Assembly: GCA_049521895.1 (NCBI GenBank)
Contig: JBEKOJ010000001.1
Span: 34,717-98,716 of the forward strand
DNA length: 64,000 nt
Reading direction: 5' to 3'
Origin: Candidatus Saccharimonadales bacterium
GTDB taxonomy: Bacteria > Patescibacteriota > Saccharimonadia > Saccharimonadales > UBA10212
Below the pieces are notes generated by a model. It ran no database searches. It was not told the DNA's origin and worked only from the letters and a program-made list of their open reading frames with translations. The translations under genes and the position numbers were made by a program. How positions within the stretch are numbered: the stretch's first letter is position 1; every line of letters begins with the position of its first letter. This document shows, in pieces, positions 7,574 through 60,506 of this stretch.

Positions 7574-9193
7574 ATGGCAGCAAAAGCCAAGGCAGATACT
7601 AAATATATATTCGTAACCGGCGGTGTATTATCTGGTGTTGGTAAAGGTATAACCGCTGCTTCTATTGGCACCATCTTAAAAGCCCGCGGGCTGTCAGTAA
7701 ACATTCAAAAGTGTGATCCATATCTGAATGTTGACGCTGGTACGCTCAACCCGGCCGAACACGGTGAATGCTTTGTCACTCGTGATGGAGCCGAAACCGA
7801 CTTGGACGTAGGCCACTACGAGCGCTTTTTAGACATGGAACTGACCAGTCGCAGTAGTCTAATGAGCGGCCGAATCCTTAGGGAAGTTATTGATGACGAG
7901 CGCGCTGGCAAATATCTAGGTAAAACGGTGCAAATTATTCCGCATGTCACCGATCACATACAACAAGCTATAAAAACTACCGCCAAGGGTTTCGACGTAC
8001 ACATAGTAGAAATTGGTGGTACGGTTGGTGACATCGAGGGTTTGAATTTTATCGAGGCAATCCGTGAAATGGGCCAAAATCTAGGCCCCGATAAAGTGAT
8101 CTTTGTACACGTCGTTTACGTGCCATATCTTGGTACCAGCCAGGAATTCAAGACCAAACCGGCACAGAACTCGGTGCGTGAACTGCGTGGTATTGGTATC
8201 GTACCTGATGTACTGGTTGTGCGCAGCGAACAAAAACCGCCCAAAAGCATTCTCAATAAGCTGAGCATGTTCAGTGGCGTGGACAAAGAAGCCATTGCGC
8301 TACTGCCCAATGCCACCACGATTTATGAAGTTCCACTGGCACTCGAAGCTGCCGGGATCGCCAAATTTATTACAGGTCGCTTGCGACTTAGAACTGACCG
8401 ACCAGACTTGGCGACATGGCGGAGCGTTGTCAAAAGCGCTCTAAGCAAATACCGCAAGACTATTCGCATCGGCATTATCGCCAAGTACGTCGATAACCAA
8501 GATACGTATATGTGTGTGTTTGAAGCGCTACGGGCAGCGGCTTGGGCCAACGAAGTCAATGTTGATATTGTTTGGGTCAATGCCGAAGCTTTAGAAAAAG
8601 ATAAAAAAGAACACGAAATACTACCCACCTTAGATGGTATTATCGTTCCCGGTGGTTTCGGCGTACGTGGTTTGGAAGGCAAAATTATCGCCGCCCGCTA
8701 TAGTCTTGATAATAGGGTTCCATTTTTGGGCCTGTGCCTGGGGCTGCAAATGGGTGTAATTGCCGCCGCCCGTAGAGCTGGTGTAAACGATGCCACTACG
8801 GTAGAACTTGACCCTAAAAGTCCTCGTAGGGTTATCGATTACATGGCTGACCAACGCGATAAGAAAAATACCGGTGGCACTATGCGCCTGGGTGACTACC
8901 CAACAGTGTTAATACGTGGCAGCAAAGCCCGCAAAGCTTATGGCCAGGAAAAAATAGTCGAGCGCCACCGCCACCGCTGCGAATGTAATAATGAATACCG
9001 CGACCAATATGGAAACTGGGGAATTACGGCCAGCGGCCTAAGCCCGGACGGCCACTTAGTAGAAGTTATAGAAGCCCAAAATCATCCGTATTTTCTAGCT
9101 ACTCAGGCACATCCGGAATTCCGCTCACGCCCCAACCGGCCACACCCCTTGTTTGTAGGCTTGGTCGAGGCGATCCTCGCTAAGACCCGCTAG
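7574..9193 (+). CDS. pyrG: CTP synthase
   Basis: N-terminal KYIFVTGGVLSGVGKG and a GATase domain (GLCLGLQ, HRHRCE). ATG at 7574 follows an AAGGAGAGG SD. Confidence 0.95.
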   Translation: MAAKAKADTKYIFVTGGVLSGVGKGITAASIGTILKARGLSVNIQKCDPYLNVDAGTLNPAEHGECFVTRDGAETDLDVGHYERFLDMELTSRSSLMSGRILREVIDDERAGKYLGKTVQIIPHVTDHIQQAIKTTAKGFDVHIVEIGGTVGDIEGLNFIEAIREMGQNLGPDKVIFVHVVYVPYLGTSQEFKTKPAQNSVRELRGIGIVPDVLVVRSEQKPPKSILNKLSMFSGVDKEAIALLPNATTIYEVPLALEAAGIAKFITGRLRLRTDRPDLATWRSVVKSALSKYRKTIRIGIIAKYVDNQDTYMCVFEALRAAAWANEVNVDIVWVNAEALEKDKKEHEILPTLDGIIVPGGFGVRGLEGKIIAARYSLDNRVPFLGLCLGLQMGVIAAARRAGVNDATTVELDPKSPRRVIDYMADQRDKKNTGGTMRLGDYPTVLIRGSKARKAYGQEKIVERHRHRCECNNEYRDQYGNWGITASGLSPDGHLVEVIEAQNHPYFLATQAHPEFRSRPNRPHPLFVGLVEAILAKTR

Positions 9194-22214: not shown

Positions 22215-23006
22215 ATGTATAGGTCATTTACGGCTGCGGATTACAGAAAGCACTTTGGTCTGCCTACGGATTATTCCATCGATGGCATCCTTTGCGCAGG
22301 GTCAATTTACTCACACGAAGAAAACGGGCAGCTTAAAGCCGGTTTGAAGGCCATAAACCGACCCTATACTTTACATCAAATAGCCGTAACCGGCAAAAAC
22401 AACCAAGATTTCCTAAGATTTATTAAAGAACTTCATATTGGCAATAAAAAATTGTGGTATTTTTGCATTTACGGCGGTGCCTTACTGAGTGAATACTTGC
22501 ATTTTGGCTACCTTTTCGGAGCCAAGAAAACCATTCTAGTCGGCATGTGTGGGGGATTGAACCAACAGGCGAATGTCGGCGACATTATTATTCCGGATAA
22601 GGCTCATTCCGATGGCAGTACCGCGCATATGTACGACCGTGAGCACCAAGAGCTCCAACCAAGCGACAAATCGCTTTCTGCAGAATTAGAAAAAGTCTGC
22701 CAAGCGCACGGGCTTAACGTGCACCGCGGCAAGACCATGACTTGCCAAGCGATGATAGCTGAAACCTGGGAGGATGTGCAGACCTGGTCCAAAGCCGGAT
22801 ATTTAGGCGTGGAGATGGAGGCCGCTACAGTCTTTGCTGTTTCTAGTCATTTTGAAAAACCTGCCGCCGCCATTTTATCGGTTGCCGATAACTTGATTAA
22901 ACAAGAAACGAACTTGCATGAAAAATATCATGCCGCGGAGGAACACCGATTGGAAGTAAAACAGGCACAATATCAGATCGCAATCAAGATTTTGTTGAAC
23001 GACTAA
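22215..23006 (+). CDS. PNP/UDP-1 family nucleoside phosphorylase
   Basis: Sequence GVEMEAATVFAVS, as in DeoD/Udp-type enzymes. 263 aa. Confidence 0.65.
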   Translation: MYRSFTAADYRKHFGLPTDYSIDGILCAGSIYSHEENGQLKAGLKAINRPYTLHQIAVTGKNNQDFLRFIKELHIGNKKLWYFCIYGGALLSEYLHFGYLFGAKKTILVGMCGGLNQQANVGDIIIPDKAHSDGSTAHMYDREHQELQPSDKSLSAELEKVCQAHGLNVHRGKTMTCQAMIAETWEDVQTWSKAGYLGVEMEAATVFAVSSHFEKPAAAILSVADNLIKQETNLHEKYHAAEEHRLEVKQAQYQIAIKILLND

Positions 23007-45708: not shown

Positions 45709-48387
45709 TTAACGGAAGCGAACGATATACTCGTCACTAGAATCAGCCAGTTTATTGTCGCTGCTGTCGGCTTGCTTTTGTCGTTGAGTTGTAGCGCCCC
45801 CGTCTTGACGTTGCTGTCCTTGGTTTTTGCGCCCACCGCGCCGGGTACGTTTGCGCTTTGGTGCTCCAGTAGAACCACCGCTATCACTACTAACATTGCT
45901 GAGCAGGCTTGCCGCGATTTTACCTAAATTGCCGCCGTAGGGTTTGGCGCCGCTGCGTGCAGTTTCTGCTCGCTGTTTAGCGATTTCGTTCAACTGTGCT
46001 TGAGCTTTTGGCCGAGCCACTTGTGGGGCAGCCTGAGGGTTATTTGCTAGGTCTGTAAGATCCAAACCAGTGTTTTTGCGGATCAGAGCATCTACGGATG
46101 CACGGTCCTTAGTGTAGCGTTCGCGTGATAGTTCTATGATGCGGCTGCTGGAGTCATCCGGCGGTTCGGGCAGGTTTAGTGTTTTGGCCGAGAAAGCCGG
46201 AGCTTTCTCGCCGCCGATGGTCATAGTGGCTACAAAATAGCGGTTGTGCTGCTGGATCAGGTCTCCGGCTTCAAACTGCGGCTCGAAATATTTAACCAAA
46301 AATGGTGCATCATCGGGACTGACGCGGAAACAGACGATAGTACCAACGTTACCGAACACCGCATTACGCACCGGCTCTTCCATCTGTGAAATGTACTGGT
46401 TGGCCACAGTTAAATTAAGCGCGTATTTGCGGGCCTCACTTAAAATGGTAGCAAAAGATTCCGTGGCAAAGACCTGGAACTCATCAACATAAAGGTAGAA
46501 CGGTCGGCGCTCGGCTTCTGGTACATCAGCACGTCCCATGGCGGCCAGCTGGATTTTGGTAACCATCATGGCGCCCAAAATACCGGCGTTATCTTCACCC
46601 ATCAGGCCGCGACTAAGATTGACTATCAGGATTTTTCCTTGGTCCATGATCTGGCGGAGGTTAAACGTACTCTTGGGCTGGCCGATGATATTCCTCACCA
46701 TCGGATTAGCTGTAAATGCACCAACTTTGTTGAGCACTGGTGCGACTGCCTCGGACGCGAACCTGTCATTCCAGCTGGCGAATTCCGTGACCCAAAAATT
46801 TTTGACCACCGGATCATCTATGTAACCGATGACGCCCGACCGGAATTTCTTGTCTGTCAGCATCCTCGTGATATCCAACATAGTGGAATTCGGGTAATCA
46901 AGCAGGGCTAGCAGCGTGTAGCGTAGAATATATTCCAGACGCGGACCCCAGCTTTCGGCGAACAAACGTTTAAGTACGCCAACCAGCTCGGAGCTGATAT
47001 GGCCCTTCAGGGTCGGATCGGTAATTTCCAGCGGGTTGAAGCCTATTGGGTGCTCAGTGTCGGCAGGGTTGAAATAAACCACATCATCTATGCGCCGTTC
47101 AGGAATGAATTTCAACACATGCTGGGCATAGTCACCGTGTGGATCGATTACCGCGAAGCCCTGGTTGTAGTAAATATCTGATAAAGTAAACAGCTCCAGT
47201 GCGCCGGATTTACCGGTGCCGGTCTGCCCCAAAATGTAAACATGCCGGCCGCGGTCCTCGCGCAGCAGTCCAAAAACAGTATTATCGCCGCGGAAATTGG
47301 TTACACCAAACAGGCTAATATCACTCTCTGGAGAGCTCGCCAGAGTGGGCACATTTGAGGGCGGCTCGGCAGTTTTAGTGTTTGCCCAGACTATGTTAGG
47401 TGTTTCCACCGTAGTGTGCGGCAAATGGAAGATACTAGCCAGCTCCTCGATATTTAAGATGTAGCCTTTATCAATAAACAAACGCGCTTGGTATTCGATT
47501 TGCCGGTCGCGGTTAAAGTTCGCCCTCCTAGCTTCAAAGCCATTGAGATTAGTTGTGTTGAATTGCTTAAATGCCCCCACCAGCGCCTGCATACGCAGGC
47601 GAGCGGTGTATTGATCGTGTCCGGCGTACAGCAGCCGGATTTTCACCTGGTATCCTAGCTTAGTCCCCTTCTGTTCTATGGCAGTGATGCGCGATTTGTC
47701 CCGCTCAGATATCTCTGGTTCTTTGCGTCCGCCACCGACTCCAGTTTCTGGTGGTTTAGCTAAGGCTCCAAAAACCTGGCTGGCGTAGCTTAGGGTGGCC
47801 CCACCTGCCCCGCTACTGAATAATCCGCCGCCGCGGCGAATGCGTTCGATAACCCTCGCTCCCCTGCGATGCCAGTCATCGGGTATTGGACGGACTATAA
47901 TTTGTATCCACATTTCTTCGTCTTGGCCGTCTAATTTGGCCAAAGTTGCAGTGATAGCGGCCAGTGGGTCTACCTCGAAACTAGGGAAAGTTTTAATTGG
48001 CAGTGTCTCATTGTCTGTTAATACCAATTCGGCGCTGTGGATTACTGTTTGGGACAGCGGCCTGTCGGCATAATCTTCGTCCTGTTCGTAAATCTGTACT
48101 GTAGGATACTGTGCATAGATCTGGCCCTCAACAAAGGCTTGTAAGTGCTTGGGAGTCCAGATATAAAAGCGTAGACGTTGGCCGATCGCTGCCATTTCCA
48201 AACTGAAATGTTCCTGAAGAGTTCCTGAGAGCCTTAGCTCGCGTTTAGGCCGTAAAATACCGTGAAGGGCAGCCAGCATCTGCTCCGCTGCCAATTCTTT
48301 TTTGTCGTTTGTGCGGGGAATCTCCAGCATCAGCAGACAATGCTCATGCCCGGGCGCTGCTTTTTTTGCTCCACTAAATATTTTCAT
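45709..48387 (-). CDS. orphan FtsK/HerA/VirD4-superfamily P-loop ATPase (TraD/TraG coupling-protein-like)
   Basis: Walker A GQTGTGKSG, AVIDPHGDY, Walker B FYLYVDEFQVF, then ANQYISQ. Unknown ~370-aa N-domain and a basic low-complexity tail. Confidence 0.55.
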   Translation of the reverse strand: MKIFSGAKKAAPGHEHCLLMLEIPRTNDKKELAAEQMLAALHGILRPKRELRLSGTLQEHFSLEMAAIGQRLRFYIWTPKHLQAFVEGQIYAQYPTVQIYEQDEDYADRPLSQTVIHSAELVLTDNETLPIKTFPSFEVDPLAAITATLAKLDGQDEEMWIQIIVRPIPDDWHRRGARVIERIRRGGGLFSSGAGGATLSYASQVFGALAKPPETGVGGGRKEPEISERDKSRITAIEQKGTKLGYQVKIRLLYAGHDQYTARLRMQALVGAFKQFNTTNLNGFEARRANFNRDRQIEYQARLFIDKGYILNIEELASIFHLPHTTVETPNIVWANTKTAEPPSNVPTLASSPESDISLFGVTNFRGDNTVFGLLREDRGRHVYILGQTGTGKSGALELFTLSDIYYNQGFAVIDPHGDYAQHVLKFIPERRIDDVVYFNPADTEHPIGFNPLEITDPTLKGHISSELVGVLKRLFAESWGPRLEYILRYTLLALLDYPNSTMLDITRMLTDKKFRSGVIGYIDDPVVKNFWVTEFASWNDRFASEAVAPVLNKVGAFTANPMVRNIIGQPKSTFNLRQIMDQGKILIVNLSRGLMGEDNAGILGAMMVTKIQLAAMGRADVPEAERRPFYLYVDEFQVFATESFATILSEARKYALNLTVANQYISQMEEPVRNAVFGNVGTIVCFRVSPDDAPFLVKYFEPQFEAGDLIQQHNRYFVATMTIGGEKAPAFSAKTLNLPEPPDDSSSRIIELSRERYTKDRASVDALIRKNTGLDLTDLANNPQAAPQVARPKAQAQLNEIAKQRAETARSGAKPYGGNLGKIAASLLSNVSSDSGGSTGAPKRKRTRRGGRKNQGQQRQDGGATTQRQKQADSSDNKLADSSDEYIVRFR

Positions 48388-48528: not shown

Positions 48529-49566
48529 TTATTCGGCCAGGCCGTAAGTAGCCTTAGCCACTCTTTTGAACTGAGACTTACCCTGTAAATTAAGTAGTAT
48601 GGTCGTTTCCTTGACTTGACGGCTTTTAAGTACGCGCCGAACTATTTCGTCACGGTGTAGCGGGCCGCCCTCTTTGTGCAAGACTTCGGCGATCACATCA
48701 GCAACAGTACCCTTTTTGTAGCCCCACTCCTTAAGTGCGTATATCCCCCGCCCGATCAGTACAAAGCGTTTGTCCTTGATAAGTTCATTATGAATCGCCT
48801 GGGTAGTCACGTCCTTGCGCTTGAAATCACTCTTTTTAATTGCTGTAGCGATCTCAGAGAAGTGCATGGGCTTTTTGACGTCGTGCAAAATCACGTAGAT
48901 CTTATCGCGGATGTTCTTGGGGTTAACCATCGGCCATTTAATAAGTCCCCAACGGCCATGCAAGTGCGCCAGTTGCTTGGATATGCTAGCCAAAGCCTCG
49001 ACATTCTTGCTGTCGGTGGAGCCAACTTGCTTAGCCACACTGCCAATATCAGTCGGTTCGCCAATTTTGTTAATGGCATCTATGATTTTAGCAACCTGCT
49101 GAACAATGGCTTTTTCGCTATGTTCAGGCGCCAAACCCAAAGCGTGGAAGAAACTATCGTTATCGCTGATCACAGCTATACTGGGGCTGAGCTGCGCCAA
49201 AAAAGCAACGCGGGCTTGGTCAACTTTGGAGTTGCCGGGAGTCAGGCGGGCGGATACGTCGCTGACACGGGCCACCTTGCCCATTACCTTTAAGTGTTCG
49301 CCCAATACTTTCTCAACCTCTTCAATATTGGCTAAATCTTTTTCAGCAGCGATTTTAAGCCTAGTCAGAATGGATTTTTCTAATTGGCGGACACGCTCAC
49401 GGGTAATACCCAAAAGTTCGCCAATTTGCTCCAGCGTTTCACGGCGGTCAAACAGTCCAAAACGGCGGGAAATTATCTCCCGCTCCCGCTCACGTTCAAT
49501 AGTGCCCAAAATGTCTTGGACCACATTTTCTACATTAAATTGTGTCTTGGATAGACTGTCTTCCAT
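48529..49566 (-). CDS. sigma-70 region-4-like HTH protein with C-terminal HARE-HTH-like winged helix modules
   Basis: Sequence ETLEQIGELLGITRERVRQLEKSIL (sigma r4-type HTH) and C-terminal MHFSEIATAI...IGRGIYALKEWGY. Confidence 0.5.
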   Translation of the reverse strand: MEDSLSKTQFNVENVVQDILGTIEREREREIISRRFGLFDRRETLEQIGELLGITRERVRQLEKSILTRLKIAAEKDLANIEEVEKVLGEHLKVMGKVARVSDVSARLTPGNSKVDQARVAFLAQLSPSIAVISDNDSFFHALGLAPEHSEKAIVQQVAKIIDAINKIGEPTDIGSVAKQVGSTDSKNVEALASISKQLAHLHGRWGLIKWPMVNPKNIRDKIYVILHDVKKPMHFSEIATAIKKSDFKRKDVTTQAIHNELIKDKRFVLIGRGIYALKEWGYKKGTVADVIAEVLHKEGGPLHRDEIVRRVLKSRQVKETTILLNLQGKSQFKRVAKATYGLAE

Positions 49567-52323: not shown

Positions 52324-53193
52324 TCAGGCAGCGTGCCAATGTCCATTGCCAGAAGGCTTTATATAGCCGGCTATTTCTAACATAGTTAATGTGCTACTTA
52401 TGGCCGACCCGTTAAGCTGACAGGCCAGCGCCAGGTCTTCTTGGTCACTTATACCGTTGGCTATCAGTCGCAGCAGACGTACTGCTTCAGGGCTACCGCG
52501 AAACTTCTTAGCTTTTTCGGCCCCGCCGAATCTTATATTAAGTGCGAAAAATATATCCTCAACTGTCGTTACTGGCACGGCGCCGCTTTTTATAAGATTA
52601 TTACAGCCCTCGCTGCCCAGGTTGGTAATGTTACCCGGTACCACCATAACAGTTTTGCCTTGCTCCAGTGCGAAACGGGCAGTATGTAAAGTACCGCTAT
52701 TGACTGCCGCTTCTGTTATCAGCAGTATGTCCGCCAAGCCACTAACGATCCGGTTGCGGGCAATGAAATTCACTCTATACCCAGGGTAACTATCAGCATA
52801 CTCGGATATCAAGCTGCCACTCTGCTCTATTATTTGCCTAGCAAGATTAACGTGTGAAGACGGGTAAATTTGTTGTAGCGGAGTTGGTAAAACGGCCACC
52901 GTGCAGCCACCGGCATCTAAAGCAGCCTGATGCGCGATGCTGTCGATACCCAGCGCCAAACCGCTGATTATCACTACCCCTGCCCGGGCTAACTCACCTG
53001 CTATTTTTTGAGTAACCCCGCGGCCATAATAACTAGCCTTGCGGCTGCCAACTATCGCTACACGCGGTTTACCCAGCCACTCAGCGGGATCTACCCCAGC
53101 CCAGAACAACCTCTGCGGACGCTCTGGTATATGTTTTAAAACCTCGGGATATCCGGGGGATCTAAGCGTAAGGGAGTTGACTTTTATCTGCAT
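52324..53193 (-). CDS. dprA: DNA processing protein DprA (Smf)
   Basis: Sequence IISGLALGIDSIAHQAALDAGGCTVAVL. 289 aa. Adjacent to topA. Confidence 0.85.
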   Translation of the reverse strand: MQIKVNSLTLRSPGYPEVLKHIPERPQRLFWAGVDPAEWLGKPRVAIVGSRKASYYGRGVTQKIAGELARAGVVIISGLALGIDSIAHQAALDAGGCTVAVLPTPLQQIYPSSHVNLARQIIEQSGSLISEYADSYPGYRVNFIARNRIVSGLADILLITEAAVNSGTLHTARFALEQGKTVMVVPGNITNLGSEGCNNLIKSGAVPVTTVEDIFFALNIRFGGAEKAKKFRGSPEAVRLLRLIANGISDQEDLALACQLNGSAISSTLTMLEIAGYIKPSGNGHWHAA

Positions 53194-53206
53194 ATATTTT
53201 TAAGCA

Positions 53207-53235
53207 TTGACACAAAGACACTTTTTTGCTAAAAT
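53207..53235 (+). promoter_or_regulatory. consensus promoter TTGACA-17-TAAAAT
   Basis: -35 at 53207-53212 and -10 at 53230-53235, pointing into a 430-bp ORF-less region. Confidence 0.55.
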
Positions 53236-53241
53236 TGCAAT

Positions 53242-53664
53242 CCGTAAGTCTACTTAGGTAGTATTTACGTACCTTATACCCCCAATAGATATCTGAAACC
53301 TTGTGTTTTAGATATCAATTTCTAACATTTTGTTAGATTGTTTAAGAGCTTTTTGGTTTCGAAGTAGTTACCCTCCACCAAGAAACCAATCGGCCCTTCG
53401 TCTGCTACTAGTTAGTATACGTCAAGCCGGGGCTCTTAAACAAACTAACCCCTTTAACTCTCTCTCCCCGTTCAGCGTGGGTCAGTGGGTCCCCCGGGAT
53501 GCGACCGGCTTAATAACCGGGCCGGCACGAATGTACGTTGCTTTTTGCCGTCTTCGTCGCTCCACTTAAGGTGGGTTGAAGGGTGTAATTAGCGGGATGA
53601 ACTTTTTGGGTTCGTCCCCTGAAAGAGCCTCCAGAGGTGCCCACCCCCTCTGAAGGCTCTTTTT
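53242..53664 (+). ncRNA. candidate structured ncRNA of unknown class (~420 nt, promoter to terminator)
   Basis: Nested helices at 53342-49/53432-39, 53354-60/53382-88 and 53594-602/53610-18. Intrinsic terminator at the 3' end. The only ORF (79 aa) is implausible. Confidence 0.4.
53623..53664 (+). terminator. intrinsic terminator (15-bp stem, T-run), overlaps the pth stop
   Basis: Sequence aagagcctccagagg tgcccacc cctctgaaggctctt tttt. Confidence 0.6.
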
Positions 53665-54298
53665 AGTCTATTGTGCGGGTGTCGTGGGGGAGCTGGCCGC
53701 TGAAGATATATTCGGTGATTAGGGCATTGGCCTCGCGGAGAATAAGTGGCAGGATCGCCTGCTCTTTTTTGCTGAATTTACCCAGGACGAAATCTGCAGC
53801 ATCGGCTTTCTCGGATAGTTCTCTGCCGGTGCCGATGCGTATGCGGCTAAAATCATTACCGATATGCACGACAAGTGATTTAACACCGTTATGTCCGGCA
53901 TCTGAACCACCCAGGCGGGTGCGCAGTTGGCCGAAAGCGATCGCCAATTCGTCATATACAACCAGGGTGCTTGGGTTATAAACCCTATAAAATCGCTGTA
54001 CCGCCTGGGCGGCTTCGCCGCTGTTGTTCATGAAAGTCGCGGGCTTGCATAGTATCACCCGTGTCTCACCCATGGTGGTGTTGGTCAGATGGCACTTCAG
54101 ATCCTTTTTAACCATCCAGGCCGGAAAGTCATTTTTGCCGGCAAAATAATCCAAGACCTCAAAACCGATATTATGCCGCGTCCCCTCATATTGCTTACCA
54201 TGGTTACCGAGACCAATAATAAGGACTGTCTTGCTGGCACCAATCGTATACAGCGGCAGGTTGCTGCTAACTTGTGGTTTTTTCTGAAAAAGCGCCAT
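53663..54298 (-). CDS. pth: peptidyl-tRNA hydrolase
   Basis: Sequence LIIGLGNHGKQYEGTRHNIGF ... GGSDAGHNGVKS. Confidence 0.9.
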   Translation of the reverse strand: MALFQKKPQVSSNLPLYTIGASKTVLIIGLGNHGKQYEGTRHNIGFEVLDYFAGKNDFPAWMVKKDLKCHLTNTTMGETRVILCKPATFMNNSGEAAQAVQRFYRVYNPSTLVVYDELAIAFGQLRTRLGGSDAGHNGVKSLVVHIGNDFSRIRIGTGRELSEKADAADFVLGKFSKKEQAILPLILREANALITEYIFSGQLPHDTRTID

Positions 54299-60431: not shown

Positions 60432-60506
60432 GGTCCCATCGTCTAGCGGTTAGGACGCCAGGTTCTCATCCTGGCAACAGGGGTTCGATTCCCCTTGGGA
60501 TCACCA
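60432..60506 (+). tRNA. tRNA-Glu (anticodon CUC), CCA encoded
   Basis: Cloverleaf read by hand: acceptor GGTCCCA/TGGGATC, anticodon stem CCAGG/CCTGG with loop TTCTCAT, T-arm GGGGTTCGATTCCCC. Confidence 0.9.

Follow-up and report, generated by a model that had tools for sequence, protein, structure and literature searches.

A predicted stand-alone gene for a large, apparently undescribed structured RNA between dprA and pth in Saccharibacteria

In Candidatus Saccharimonadales bacterium, a member of the Saccharibacteria (TM7) within the Candidate Phyla Radiation (CPR), the genes dprA and pth are separated by a gap of 470 bp. Saccharibacteria live as episymbionts, are extremely small and have lost most of their non-essential DNA in the course of genome reduction; nonetheless they retain here an RNA gene of about 420 nt with a near-consensus promoter. 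In the window, i.e. the whole stretch of 64,000 nucleotides that was analysed, the plus strand carries between positions 53207 and 53664 a promoter, about 420 nt without coding signal and then a terminator hairpin. According to a first-pass annotation, this is a structured RNA on its own, about 420 nt long, reaching from promoter to terminator and matching no known class, and our analysis supports this proposal: promoter and terminator are conserved, the helices covary, and neither Rfam nor ARAGORN provided a match. Judged from its sequence, the gap holds on its plus strand a folded non-coding RNA gene of about 420 nt which is independently transcribed from its own near-consensus promoter to its own terminator and belongs to an uncatalogued family.

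The promoter (53207-53235, plus strand) consists of the -35 element TTGACA at 53207-12, a 17-nt spacer and the extended -10 element TGCTAAAAT at 53227-35, in which TAAAAT (53230-35) is preceded by TG; a consensus scan found 11 of the 12 consensus positions. It is the TTGACA-17-TAAAAT promoter of the first-pass annotation, and as AGTATTGACA-N17-TTTGCTAAAAT it immediately precedes the conserved RNA, in an unchanged position, in the 138 upstream regions of homologs that were examined. The RNA gene was delimited to 53236-53666 (plus strand) by nhmmer and profile matches. Its conserved sequence begins at 53236 with UGCAA, transcription probably starts at about 53241-53244, and the 3' end would fall within the U-tract at 53660-53666, as predicted from the terminator; expression and abundance are, like the ends, predictions from promoter and terminator. 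The profile match at 53236-53664 is the sole copy of the RNA within the 64-kb window. The terminator hairpin, P10, shares 2 nt with the stop codon of pth (53663-65), and the dprA start codon lies about 45-55 nt from the RNA 5' end in divergent orientation.

Metagenome loci and GTDB species genomes yielded 138 distinct full-length homologs of 296-681 nt, which were aligned by sequence only with mafft E-INS-i. Query positions 2-427 were covered by nhmmer in about 65 of the 85 Pth-anchored metagenome loci, and the scan of GTDB species genomes detected the RNA in at least 112 of 119 stretches among the matches listed. As far as sampled, the family, which is conserved in well over 100 Saccharibacteria genomes, appears to be limited to Saccharimonadia (Saccharibacteria/TM7). 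Every homolog has the same promoter and lies on the same strand relative to the neighbour genes. About 30% of the RNA positions are at least 90% conserved, as compared to 50-80% identity for the neighbour proteins, and approximately 120 nucleotides are nearly invariant across a clade of order to class level. To our knowledge, a comparable level of conservation is otherwise a mark of rRNA, RNase P RNA, tmRNA and SRP RNA.

The RNA adjoins dprA, which is divergently oriented, at a spacing that is tightly conserved among relatives, and topA takes this place where dprA is missing. The gene downstream of the RNA is convergent in 66 loci and co-oriented in 57, and the co-oriented downstream proteins are mostly unrelated to one another (25 of the 57 loci compared). 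No conserved gene was found 3' of the RNA among the loci compared, nor any co-occurring protein gene besides the syntenic housekeeping neighbours. Since the downstream genes are heterogeneous or convergent, the RNA is not a leader: the conserved co-oriented downstream gene that marks a cis-regulatory leader or riboswitch is missing. In addition, no riboswitch model of Rfam 15 matched, be it in the window at the gathering score or in an 801-nt region at E-values up to 10.

The conserved divergent spacing might also be read as that of a cis-acting or antisense element of the der-pth-dprA-topA unit, which would regulate dprA and whose conserved blocks would in part be promoter or leader of this gene. 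Direct reading of the minus strand of the invariant segment C1 (see below) gives GGGGGTATAAGGT, which contains the -10-like TATAAG, and the conservation at 53236-53283 could partly be due to an overlapping dprA promoter on the opposite strand. Moreover, on the minus strand only 3 U come behind the hairpin after pth in the window, and most relatives lack a U-tract there, as read directly from the reverse complement, so that read-through antisense transcription is plausible. However, a promoter needs no 400 nt of covarying structure, and the RNA persists with its sequence unchanged at loci that lack dprA and have topA or some other gene beside the RNA, and also on one contig with mobile-element neighbours. 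The structure itself points to the plus strand. In paired positions of the homologs G-U occurs in 474 cells versus 33 for A-C, which identifies the plus strand as the structured one, and the plus strand also folds more strongly (minimum free energy (MFE) -161.4 kcal/mol, z = -9.1) than the minus strand (z = -5.5). We therefore consider an element of this kind very unlikely.

The first-pass annotation had seen no credible reading frame in the region, and the sole long one is indeed a 79-aa ORF with a TTG start (53330-53569). That this ORF or a similar one encodes a conserved small protein has a practically negligible probability. The distances between invariant blocks are spread evenly modulo 3 in 125 homologs, and from this lack of a 3-nt periodicity it is concluded that the region is not coding; furthermore, the changes in the helices are compensatory and hairpin-sized insertions break up the invariant blocks. 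A conserved small protein in place of the RNA was not found.

Covariation among the 138 homologs is strong, as is the conservation, and seven helices rise above both shuffle and register-shift controls. Compensatory changes beyond controls, strand-specific G-U pairs and the missing coding signal together are what is generally expected of a structured non-coding RNA. The predicted fold, the topology of which agrees across constrained folds of 14 diverse homologs, is a 5' hairpin followed by two multi-branched domains, closed by the helices P3 and P6, and a terminal hairpin. Hairpins that only some homologs have sit at discrete insertion sites, and freely covarying stems stand alongside conserved loops and junctions, a pattern that is known from RNase P RNA, rRNA and large ornate RNAs.

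All parts of this fold lie on the plus strand. The 5' hairpin P1 (CGUAAGUCUAC / GUAGUAUUUACG, 53243-53269, MFE fold) has a variable apex, and its first six pairs, located by sequence anchors, are 70-100% canonical in 125 homologs. It is followed by the invariant junction C1 (UACCUUAUACCCCC, 53270-53283, at least 90% conserved), whose AUACCC can pair in the MFE fold with GGGUGU of a G-rich strand, G2; as both sides are invariant, covariation is uninformative on this pairing. An optional hairpin at 53287-53316, recognised by alignment gaps and the MFE fold, is missing in most relatives. The subsequent hairpin P2 (UCUAAC-AUUUU-GUUAGA, 53321-53337) is 90% canonical with weak covariation, and its 3' strand alternatively pairs with CUAAC at 53445-49 to form P3a, which is 93% canonical, has double changes in 4 of 5 pairs and a score reached by none of 300 shuffles. 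P2 and P3a share nucleotides in most members, so that either the model is partly ambiguous or the RNA switches conformation.

The 5' domain (53339-53442) is closed by the long-range helix P3 (53339-48 with 53433-42) and holds P4 and the variable P5. The nested helices of the first-pass annotation are recovered here: its outer one (53342-49 with 53432-39) is real and corresponds to P3, which is 97.5% canonical with double changes in 8 of 10 pairs (e.g. UA:74 / AU:54) and a score that 0 of 300 shuffles reach, and its inner one (53354-60 with 53382-88) is the stem of the hairpin P4 (53354-53388). This stem is variable and stands on a conserved base, AAGU / ACYW (96% canonical, with the exchange AU:125 / CG:8), and it carries the invariant C-rich loop L4 (..UACCCUCC.., 53366-76); UACCCUCCAC of P4 is invariant or nearly so in the 138 homologs. 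The P5 region (53389-53432) is variable, and in 72% of the homologs its fold is better than that of shuffled sequences.

The invariant segment C3 (53445-53459) contains CUAAC, the 3' strand of P3a, and then CCCUUUAACU, the 5' strand of P6. With the latter begins the 3' domain (53450-53583), closed by P6 (53450-59 with 53574-83); in this helix 99% of the pairs are canonical, one U-G pair is invariant, and a single exchange, CG to GC/AU, occurs. Within this domain lie P7b (53466-81), P8 (53489-92 / 53497-500, double changes in 3 of 4 pairs), P8b (53505-20) and P9 (about 53521-62, with the exchange GC:15 / AU:5 at the base of the helix). P8b is the CCGG hairpin of the first-pass annotation, and its sequence varies among relatives while the hairpin is kept. 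The G-rich strand G2 (GGUGGGUUGAAGGGUGUAAU, 53570-53589) is invariant in 45 of 45 homologs and nearly so in all 138. By direct reading it is complementary, in this order, to CCCACC of the P10 loop, CCCUUUAAC of C3 and AUACCC of C1. Covariation supports the pairing with C3 only, since those with the P10 loop and C1 use only invariant bases and are beyond covariation testing; the single natural variant of G2 that was seen, GGUGGA in locus L032, is accompanied by no compensating change.

Another hairpin of the first-pass annotation (53594-602 with 53610-18) corresponds to GGGAUGAAC / GUUCGUCCC at 53592-53619 in the MFE fold. It is real but optional, being present in about one third of the homologs, where its sequence differs yet complementarity is kept. 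The intrinsic terminator that had been proposed is borne out as well: P10 (53622-53664) consists of a G+C-rich stem of 10 bp (53625-34 / 53650-59) followed by TTTTT, and 9 of the 10 stem pairs covary, with 99% canonical pairs and an observed score reached by 0 of 300 shuffles. A consensus terminator scan overlooked it because the nominal loop is longer than 8 nt. At its invariant apex GGUGCCCACCCCC (53636-48) there is probably a hexaloop, CCCACC, and the loop is identical in 45 of 45 homologs whose detection did not rely on it as search key.

We know of only a handful of large bacterial non-coding RNAs without known function (OLE, ROOL, GOLLD and raiA). Our RNA matched no family of Rfam 15 at the gathering score, for the whole window and 20 homolog loci, or at E-values up to 10 for the 801-nt region and 18 further loci, where scores below about 14 bits would escape listing. 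The scans gave only tRNAs and scattered chance matches, e.g. BjrC80 (E = 0.028) on terminator hairpins. As far as our literature searches reached, no description of such an RNA was found. The RNA thus looks like a previously undescribed large RNA of Saccharibacteria.

Among the housekeeping RNAs, RNase P RNA bears an outward likeness: it is a stand-alone gene product of 300-450 nt, with invariant junctions and loops beside covarying stems, lineage-specific optional hairpins and domain-closing long-range pairings. An extremely divergent RNase P RNA would be in keeping with the size of our RNA, its strong promoter and a degree of conservation like that of housekeeping RNAs, and the junction topology of the 3' domain is loosely S-domain-like; moreover, RNase P RNAs of CPR bacteria are known to score below the Rfam thresholds (PMC8172020). 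The defining features are missing, however. The CR-I pattern (G.AA..UC.G.G) occurs in 2 and the CR-V pattern (AC...A..C.G..UA) in 1 of the 138 homologs, and both in order in none, whereas E. coli M1 RNA as a control matches both; a P4 pseudoknot with these universally conserved nucleotides is absent. No covarying P1-P2 pairing joins the two ends, the 5' end being a local hairpin and the 3' end the terminator hairpin. RF00010 and RF00011 gave no match at E-values up to 10 in the 801-nt region and 18 relative-bearing loci, and in P8 the bases that resemble AGUCC covary within a local hairpin. In addition, RNase P RNAs of the RF00010 type have been reported in both circular Saccharimonadia genomes studied (PMC8172020), suggesting that this role is already filled by a separate gene. 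We regard this explanation as highly improbable.

Several short likenesses to RNase P RNA were tried and rejected. That of GGGUUGAAGGGUG to E. coli GGGUGAAAGGGUG and that of AGUCC/CGGCU to P4 of RNase P both concern bases in covarying or invariant local helices, and CR-I and CR-V fail. The RNase P-like strings quoted in the first-pass annotation, AAGCCGGGGCTC and CCGGCTTA, turned out not to be conserved in relatives. With respect to a separate canonical RNase P RNA, regex candidates in the loci L138 and L141 were not confirmed by Rfam, the scan covering 5 loci that bear P4-like strings, with E-values up to 0.1. SmpB and RnpA of E. coli, used in a tblastn search of 1.4 Mb of Saccharimonadales DNA for ssrA or rnpB in their vicinity, gave no match.

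A divergent or circularly permuted tmRNA, with the internal CCCUCCA(CCA) as its 3' acceptor strand, was suggested by the resemblance of CCCUCCACCA to the 3' end of tRNA-Ala or tmRNA. Similar size, a CUCCA-type motif and a neighbour, pth, that is involved in ribosome rescue agree with this idea, as do the variable inserted genes and occasional partial 3'-end duplicates downstream, which are also found at tmRNA genes. However, the motif is located in a hairpin loop and its CCA is not conserved: the CCACCA remarked on in the first-pass annotation is confined to the sequence of the window, and relatives carry CCACUU. By direct reading, pairing with GGUGGGU, the best partner on the 5' side, puts U:U instead of G-U at position 3:70. 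A tRNA-like domain, with a 7-bp acceptor stem containing G3:U70, a T-arm and a 3' CCA or processing site, is missing, as is a conserved tag frame with resume codon and stop. ARAGORN, by which permuted forms are detected as well, found no tmRNA in the window, in 44 loci or in the 1.4 Mb of Saccharimonadales DNA, and no tmRNA family of Rfam (RF00023 and the permuted families) matched. A tmRNA is scarcely credible on these grounds. A candidate tag ORF in the GCAAUUGCUUAAGCUAA region of P5 was dismissed, as its frame is not consistent and the RNA of the window and its close relatives lack this segment.

For SRP RNA, P8 slightly resembles domain IV; this candidate was rejected, as its loop is variable and the stem bases covary, whereas domain IV (helix 8) is defined by a GNRA loop together with symmetric and asymmetric loops, and neither RF00169 nor RF01854 matched in the Rfam scans of the window and the homolog loci. 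The first-pass annotation had likewise recognised neither RNase P RNA, tmRNA nor SRP RNA, and the absence of the defining RNase P and tmRNA features agrees with it.

Its tentative '6S-like' label, by contrast, finds no support. An RNA related to 6S or Ms1 RNA, which would bind RNA polymerase, is quite improbable here. 6S RNAs are notoriously divergent in sequence and hard to find by sequence search; the gene in question is a stand-alone RNA gene of the abundant type with a strong promoter, and at the Rfam gathering score no 6S RNA family was matched in the DNA examined (window and 20 loci), all of which would fit. However, the RNA is twice as long as a usual 6S RNA, and its covariation-supported fold has multi-helix junctions in two domains and unpaired ends instead of an extended rod with a 5'/3' closing stem, central bubble and terminal loop.

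The C-rich loops permit another explanation, namely a trans-acting base-pairing regulator that would use the loops, UACCCUCC of P4 and CCCACC or CCCCCUC of the terminator, as seeds for G-rich sites such as the Shine-Dalgarno sequences of target mRNAs. Small RNAs of the RsaE/RoxS type of Firmicutes pair with G-rich sites through UCCC loops, and likewise there are four invariant copies of an ACCCY-like motif in our RNA, two of them in hairpin loops including that of the terminator, in addition to its own promoter and terminator. Against this, a length of 296-681 nt with about 120 invariant nucleotides and two ornate covarying domains exceeds the needs of a seed-type sRNA, being four times the size of RsaE/RoxS. 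Most of the C-rich blocks have a G-rich partner within the RNA itself, and the host is poor in suitable sites: only 10 of the 51 genes in the window have a Shine-Dalgarno-like sequence, many genes appear leaderless, and the complements of the invariant loops in the 64 kb are 8-mers at chance level only. Such a regulator is, in our opinion, unlikely.

What the sequences show is a large structured RNA that is absent from Rfam 15, belongs to one lineage as far as sampled and has transcription signals of its own. We consider it likely, although well short of certain, that it is a trans-acting core of ribonucleoprotein or ribozyme type. G2 would be the spine of the fold, pairing with three distant C/U-rich strands, i.e. 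those of the terminator loop and of the junctions that follow P3 and P1. The compact core would display at least one invariant C-rich loop, UACCCUCC in P4, as docking surface, and the CCCACC apex of P10 is possibly a second one. The RNA may act in trans as a stable and abundant 'machine-type' RNA, comparable to RNase P RNA, SRP RNA or OLE/ROOL-type RNAs, and might be the core of a ribonucleoprotein, ribozyme-like or a self-assembling ornate RNA, rather than a cis leader, an antisense regulator or an mRNA.

A bolder form of this proposal, to which we would give even chances, is that the RNA represents a new class of large, essential-type RNA of Saccharibacteria. The invariant C-rich loops together with the G-rich spine would then form a catalytic or docking centre, and the mutually exclusive pairings (P2 versus P3a, C1 versus C3 on G2) would allow two states. 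OLE, ROOL, GOLLD and raiA motif RNA are comparable in being non-coding RNAs of several hundred nt with complex multi-domain folds, extreme conservation within one lineage and no obvious cis target. Our RNA matches none of them in Rfam 15, however; it resides in a different lineage (CPR/Saccharibacteria) and lies in a different neighbourhood, next to dprA/topA and pth, and it has no associated protein genes such as oapA.

As far as literature searches reached, no large RNA of the OLE/ROOL/GOLLD/raiA kind has been reported from the Candidate Phyla Radiation, and if the proposal is true, this would be the first lineage-defining one. Each of those RNAs led to new biology, RNA-only nanocages among it. 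The family lends itself to direct tests, since cultivation and genetic manipulation are now possible for some Saccharibacteria, and for annotators of Saccharibacteria genomes the RNA provides a new marker gene. Variable inserted genes and partial duplicates of the RNA 3' end were found downstream of the RNA. The RNA also flags this locus as one at which variable and mobile DNA accumulates.

Positions 53194-53662 form a gap that separates dprA (52324-53193, - strand) from pth (53663-54298, - strand) and lies in a gene run der-pth-gap-dprA-topA in which every gene is placed on the - strand. The first-pass annotation had read this gap as a promoter firing into a structured region without a credible ORF and ending in an intrinsic terminator. 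This observation is accurate, as judged from the promoter, the terminator, the fold z-scores and the fact that the sole long ORF in the gap is a 79-aa TTG ORF. In detail, TTGACA and, after a spacer of 17 nt, a TAAAAT preceded by TG are found at 53207-53235 (+), matching 11 of 12 positions in a consensus scan, and a 10-bp G+C-rich stem followed by TTTTT is found at 53622-53664 (+), a hairpin overlooked by the consensus scan solely because its nominal loop exceeds 8 nt. The + strand has an MFE of -161.4 kcal/mol (z = -9.1 against dinucleotide shuffles), and the - strand folds with z = -5.5 against the same kind of shuffles.

For the homology search, 80 metagenome loci, each encoding a Pth relative of 61-80% identity, were fetched, and the single sequence at 53236-53668 was used as nhmmer query. 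About 65 of 85 loci were matched, nearly always at full length (query positions 2-427) and invariably on the strand opposite pth, and in an alignment of 45 distinct homologs long invariant blocks alternate with variable hairpin-sized segments. A GTDB scan of one genome per species with a pattern of two invariant blocks yielded at least 119 stretches; according to a profile search, 112 of the 119 matches listed are full homologs, and the other seven, including Actinobacteria and a Kiloniellaceae bin, were dismissed as chance matches. In total, at least 138 full-length homologs of differing sequence were collected, 296-681 nt long with a median of 428. Their invariant blocks (GCAA...GUAAG, ACCUUAUACCCC, UGUUU.AGAG / CUCU.AAACA, AAGUUGUUACCCUCCACUU, UAACCCCUUUAAC, GGUGGGUUGAAGGGUGUAAU and GCGGUGCCCACCCCCUC) are at least 90% conserved, whereas the adjoining proteins are just 50-80% identical. 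The window contains one copy.

Among the matches listed, all full homologs are labelled Saccharibacteria, Saccharimonadales, Saccharimonadia or Patescibacteria with the exception of those in two bins, labelled Dormibacterota (locus L114) and Bacillota (locus L115). Both of these contigs carry full homologs and are probably mis-binned Saccharibacteria, so that the RNA could serve bin curation as a lineage marker.

Upstream regions were examined for 138 homologs, and in these AGTATTGACA-N17-TTTGCTAAAAT stands directly 5' of the conserved RNA. A conserved reading frame is excluded by the inter-block distances: some 50 distinct values occur, evenly spread over the three residues modulo 3. A role as cis-acting leader was also rejected, since 66 loci have a convergent gene 3' of the RNA and, in the 57 loci with a co-oriented one, the 25 downstream proteins compared are for the most part mutually unrelated. 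The supported helices contain 474 G-U as opposed to 33 A-C cells; in addition, the invariant U-G pair of helix P6 and the G-U pair that most commonly closes helix P8 would be mismatched on the - strand, which places the RNA on the + strand. On this comparative sequence evidence we conclude that a single-copy gene, transcribed on its own and conserved lineage-wide, encodes a structured non-coding RNA.

For the secondary structure, 138 sequences were aligned with E-INS-i on sequence only and all column pairs were searched for covariation; 300 column shuffles and partners shifted by 1-2 columns served as controls. Six helices stand out: P3 (53339-48 with 53433-42; 97.5% canonical, changes on both sides in 8/10 pairs, e.g. 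UA:74 / AU:54), its extension P3a (53332-36 with 53445-49; 93%, 4/5 pairs), the base of P4 (53362-65 with 53377-80; 96%, 3/4 pairs), P6 (53450-59 with 53574-83; 99%, one of ten pairs with CG:130 / GC:5 / AU:2 and the rest invariant), P8 (53489-92 with 53497-500; 93%, 3/4 pairs) and P10 (53625-34 with 53650-59; 99%, 9/10 pairs). For all six, none of the 300 shuffles reaches the observed covariation score or fraction paired, and shifted registers drop to 9-70% canonical. RNAalifold independently finds P3/P3a, P6 and P10 as well as the base of P9 (GC:15 / AU:5). The P2 hairpin (53321-26 with 53332-37) is 90% canonical with weak covariation and shares nucleotides with P3a in most members.

Read from 5' to 3', the RNA consists of the 5' hairpin P1, the invariant junction C1 (53270-83), P2, a 5' domain that P3 closes around P4 (invariant loop UACCCUCC) and P5 (variable), the invariant junction C3 (53445-59), a 3' domain that P6 closes, the G-rich strand G2 (53570-89), also invariant, and P10 with its invariant apex GGUG-CCCACC-CCC. 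Constrained folds of 14 diverse members gave a single topology for the 3' domain, in which P6 encloses P7 and a stem opening into P8, P8b and P9. Two further hairpins, 53287-53316 and 53592-53619, are insertions that the alignment shows to be optional.

The G2 strand reads GGUGGG-UUGAAGGG-UGUAA and complements, in this order, the P10 loop (CCCACC), C3 (CCCUUUAA) and C1 (AUACCC / UUAUA). Among these pairings covariation supports only the one with C3; those with the P10 loop and with C1, in which the bases are invariant, are predicted from complementarity, and the lone natural G2 variant seen is uncompensated. Two sets of mutually exclusive partners are conserved. GUUAGA has a potential partner both in UCUAAC of the P2 hairpin (53321-53337) and in CUAAC of the P3 extension (53445-53449), and the GGG of G2 (within 53574-53588) both in the CCC of C1 (53274-53281) and in that of C3 (53450-53458). 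These competitions could mean a conformational switch. In a subgroup resembling locus L035, P2 and P3a lie on different nucleotides and can coexist.

Comparison with Rfam 15 gave no match at gathering score for the window and 20 loci with RNA relatives, and at E up to 10 no match recurred among the region and 18 further such loci. The RNA is not a tmRNA, in agreement with the first-pass annotation: ARAGORN found neither standard nor permuted tmRNA in any DNA scanned, and a T-arm and a conserved tag frame are lacking. Moreover, tmRNA needs G3:U70, whereas the only G-rich partners in this RNA would give U:U; the CCACCA string noticed earlier occupies a hairpin-loop position and is CCACUU in relatives. 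RNase P RNA was likewise rejected, because its universal CR-I and CR-V patterns, which form the P4 of RNase P RNA, are absent from 136-137 of the 138 members (the E. coli control matches both) and the ends are unpaired; the RNase P-like strings quoted in the first-pass annotation are not conserved in relatives. RF00010-type RNase P RNAs have been reported in all circular CPR genomes of Lui et al. 2021, two of them Saccharimonadia (PMC8172020), so that the RNase P role is presumably held by another gene. An SRP domain IV is absent from the RNA, again as first described, but the tentative comparison with 6S RNA finds no support, as 6S RNA is a rod and this fold is multi-branched with free ends.

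Full-text searches of open-access papers and bioRxiv turned up no such RNA for Saccharibacteria or Patescibacteria, although a prior description may exist elsewhere. Within this literature it belongs to an uncatalogued family for which no relation to known classes could be detected, and we consider it very probable that it is a real and novel non-coding RNA family.

The junctions and loops of the RNA are invariant, its stems covary freely, its peripheral hairpins are optional and its conservation is far above that of neighbouring proteins. Folded-machine RNAs such as RNase P RNA, SRP RNA, rRNA, OLE and ROOL have this pattern, which favours a trans-acting stable RNA. In such an RNA three distant C/U-rich strands would be held together by the G-rich spine as a compact core, and this core would offer a putative partner the P4 loop, perhaps along with the P10 apex. 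By analogy, an RNP, ribozyme or ornate-RNA mechanism is a tentative assignment, with a chance a little short of even. The C-rich loops could instead serve a seed-type base-pairing regulator, the main alternative, which we regard as improbable. SD-like sequences precede only 10 of the 51 window genes and most mRNAs are probably leaderless, which argues against an anti-Shine-Dalgarno use of these loops.

In nearly all loci the RNA 5' end lies a median of ~52 nt from the divergent dprA start codon, even where other genes part the RNA from pth. In loci without dprA the neighbour is topA or another gene and the RNA is unchanged, so that the linkage looks like synteny rather than dependence. In the window (53194-53283, - strand), the dprA start codon is only ~14 nt beyond the -35 box of the RNA, which leaves no room for a dprA promoter that would not overlap the promoter or the 5' end of the RNA; on the - strand C1 reads GGGGGTATAAGGT, which is -10-like. 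The hairpin after pth has just 3 U behind its stem on the - strand, and antisense to the RNA might thus arise through pth read-through.

Downstream of the RNA, the stretch up to pth is an insertion hot spot that has taken up unrelated genes (L030, L034, L050, L074, L158, L093, L162, L175 and other loci), among them a 250-aa family in five loci, a 190-aa family in four and a protein of 529 aa which, judged by eye, is Ser/Thr-kinase-like and has TPR-like repeats. The pth gene of the window abuts the RNA terminator. Partial duplicates of the P10 3' half (..GUGCCCACCCCCUCCGGAG..) occur just downstream of the RNA in three genomes, 3 nt past its 3' end in L077, 27 nt past in L150 and at 6577-6611 in L151, and recall the att-site duplications left by tRNA/tmRNA-integrating elements. 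A viral-classed IMG/VR contig (L205, IMGVR_UViG_3300049064_000004) contains a full copy of the RNA at 7973-8369 that has a promoter of its own and is not beside dprA, topA or pth. Its neighbours are Dam and Dcm DNA methyltransferases, a PD-(D/E)XK nuclease-FtsK/SpoIIIE fusion and a RecT-like protein; either a mobile element inserted beside the RNA gene or the element carries the gene.

Many window genes have a TATAAT- or TAAAAT-like box, often inside AAAACAGRGTAAAATA, 7-10 nt before the start codon, e.g. at 22215, 23971, 24688, 25944, 28305, 42782 and 54313(-). Together with the scarcity of SD-like sequences, these boxes suggest that leaderless mRNAs prevail in this organism. A tRNA-Glu (CUC) at 60432-60506 (+), also present in L075, is the sole RNA gene seen by Rfam and ARAGORN in the 64-kb window. 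Just beyond topA, an 892-aa protein with DUF8128 and T4SS/TrwB-like ATPase matches (45709-48387, - strand) lies beside a 345-aa protein with sigma-70 region 4 and HARE-HTH matches (48529-49566, - strand), and this arrangement is kept in near-identical contigs.
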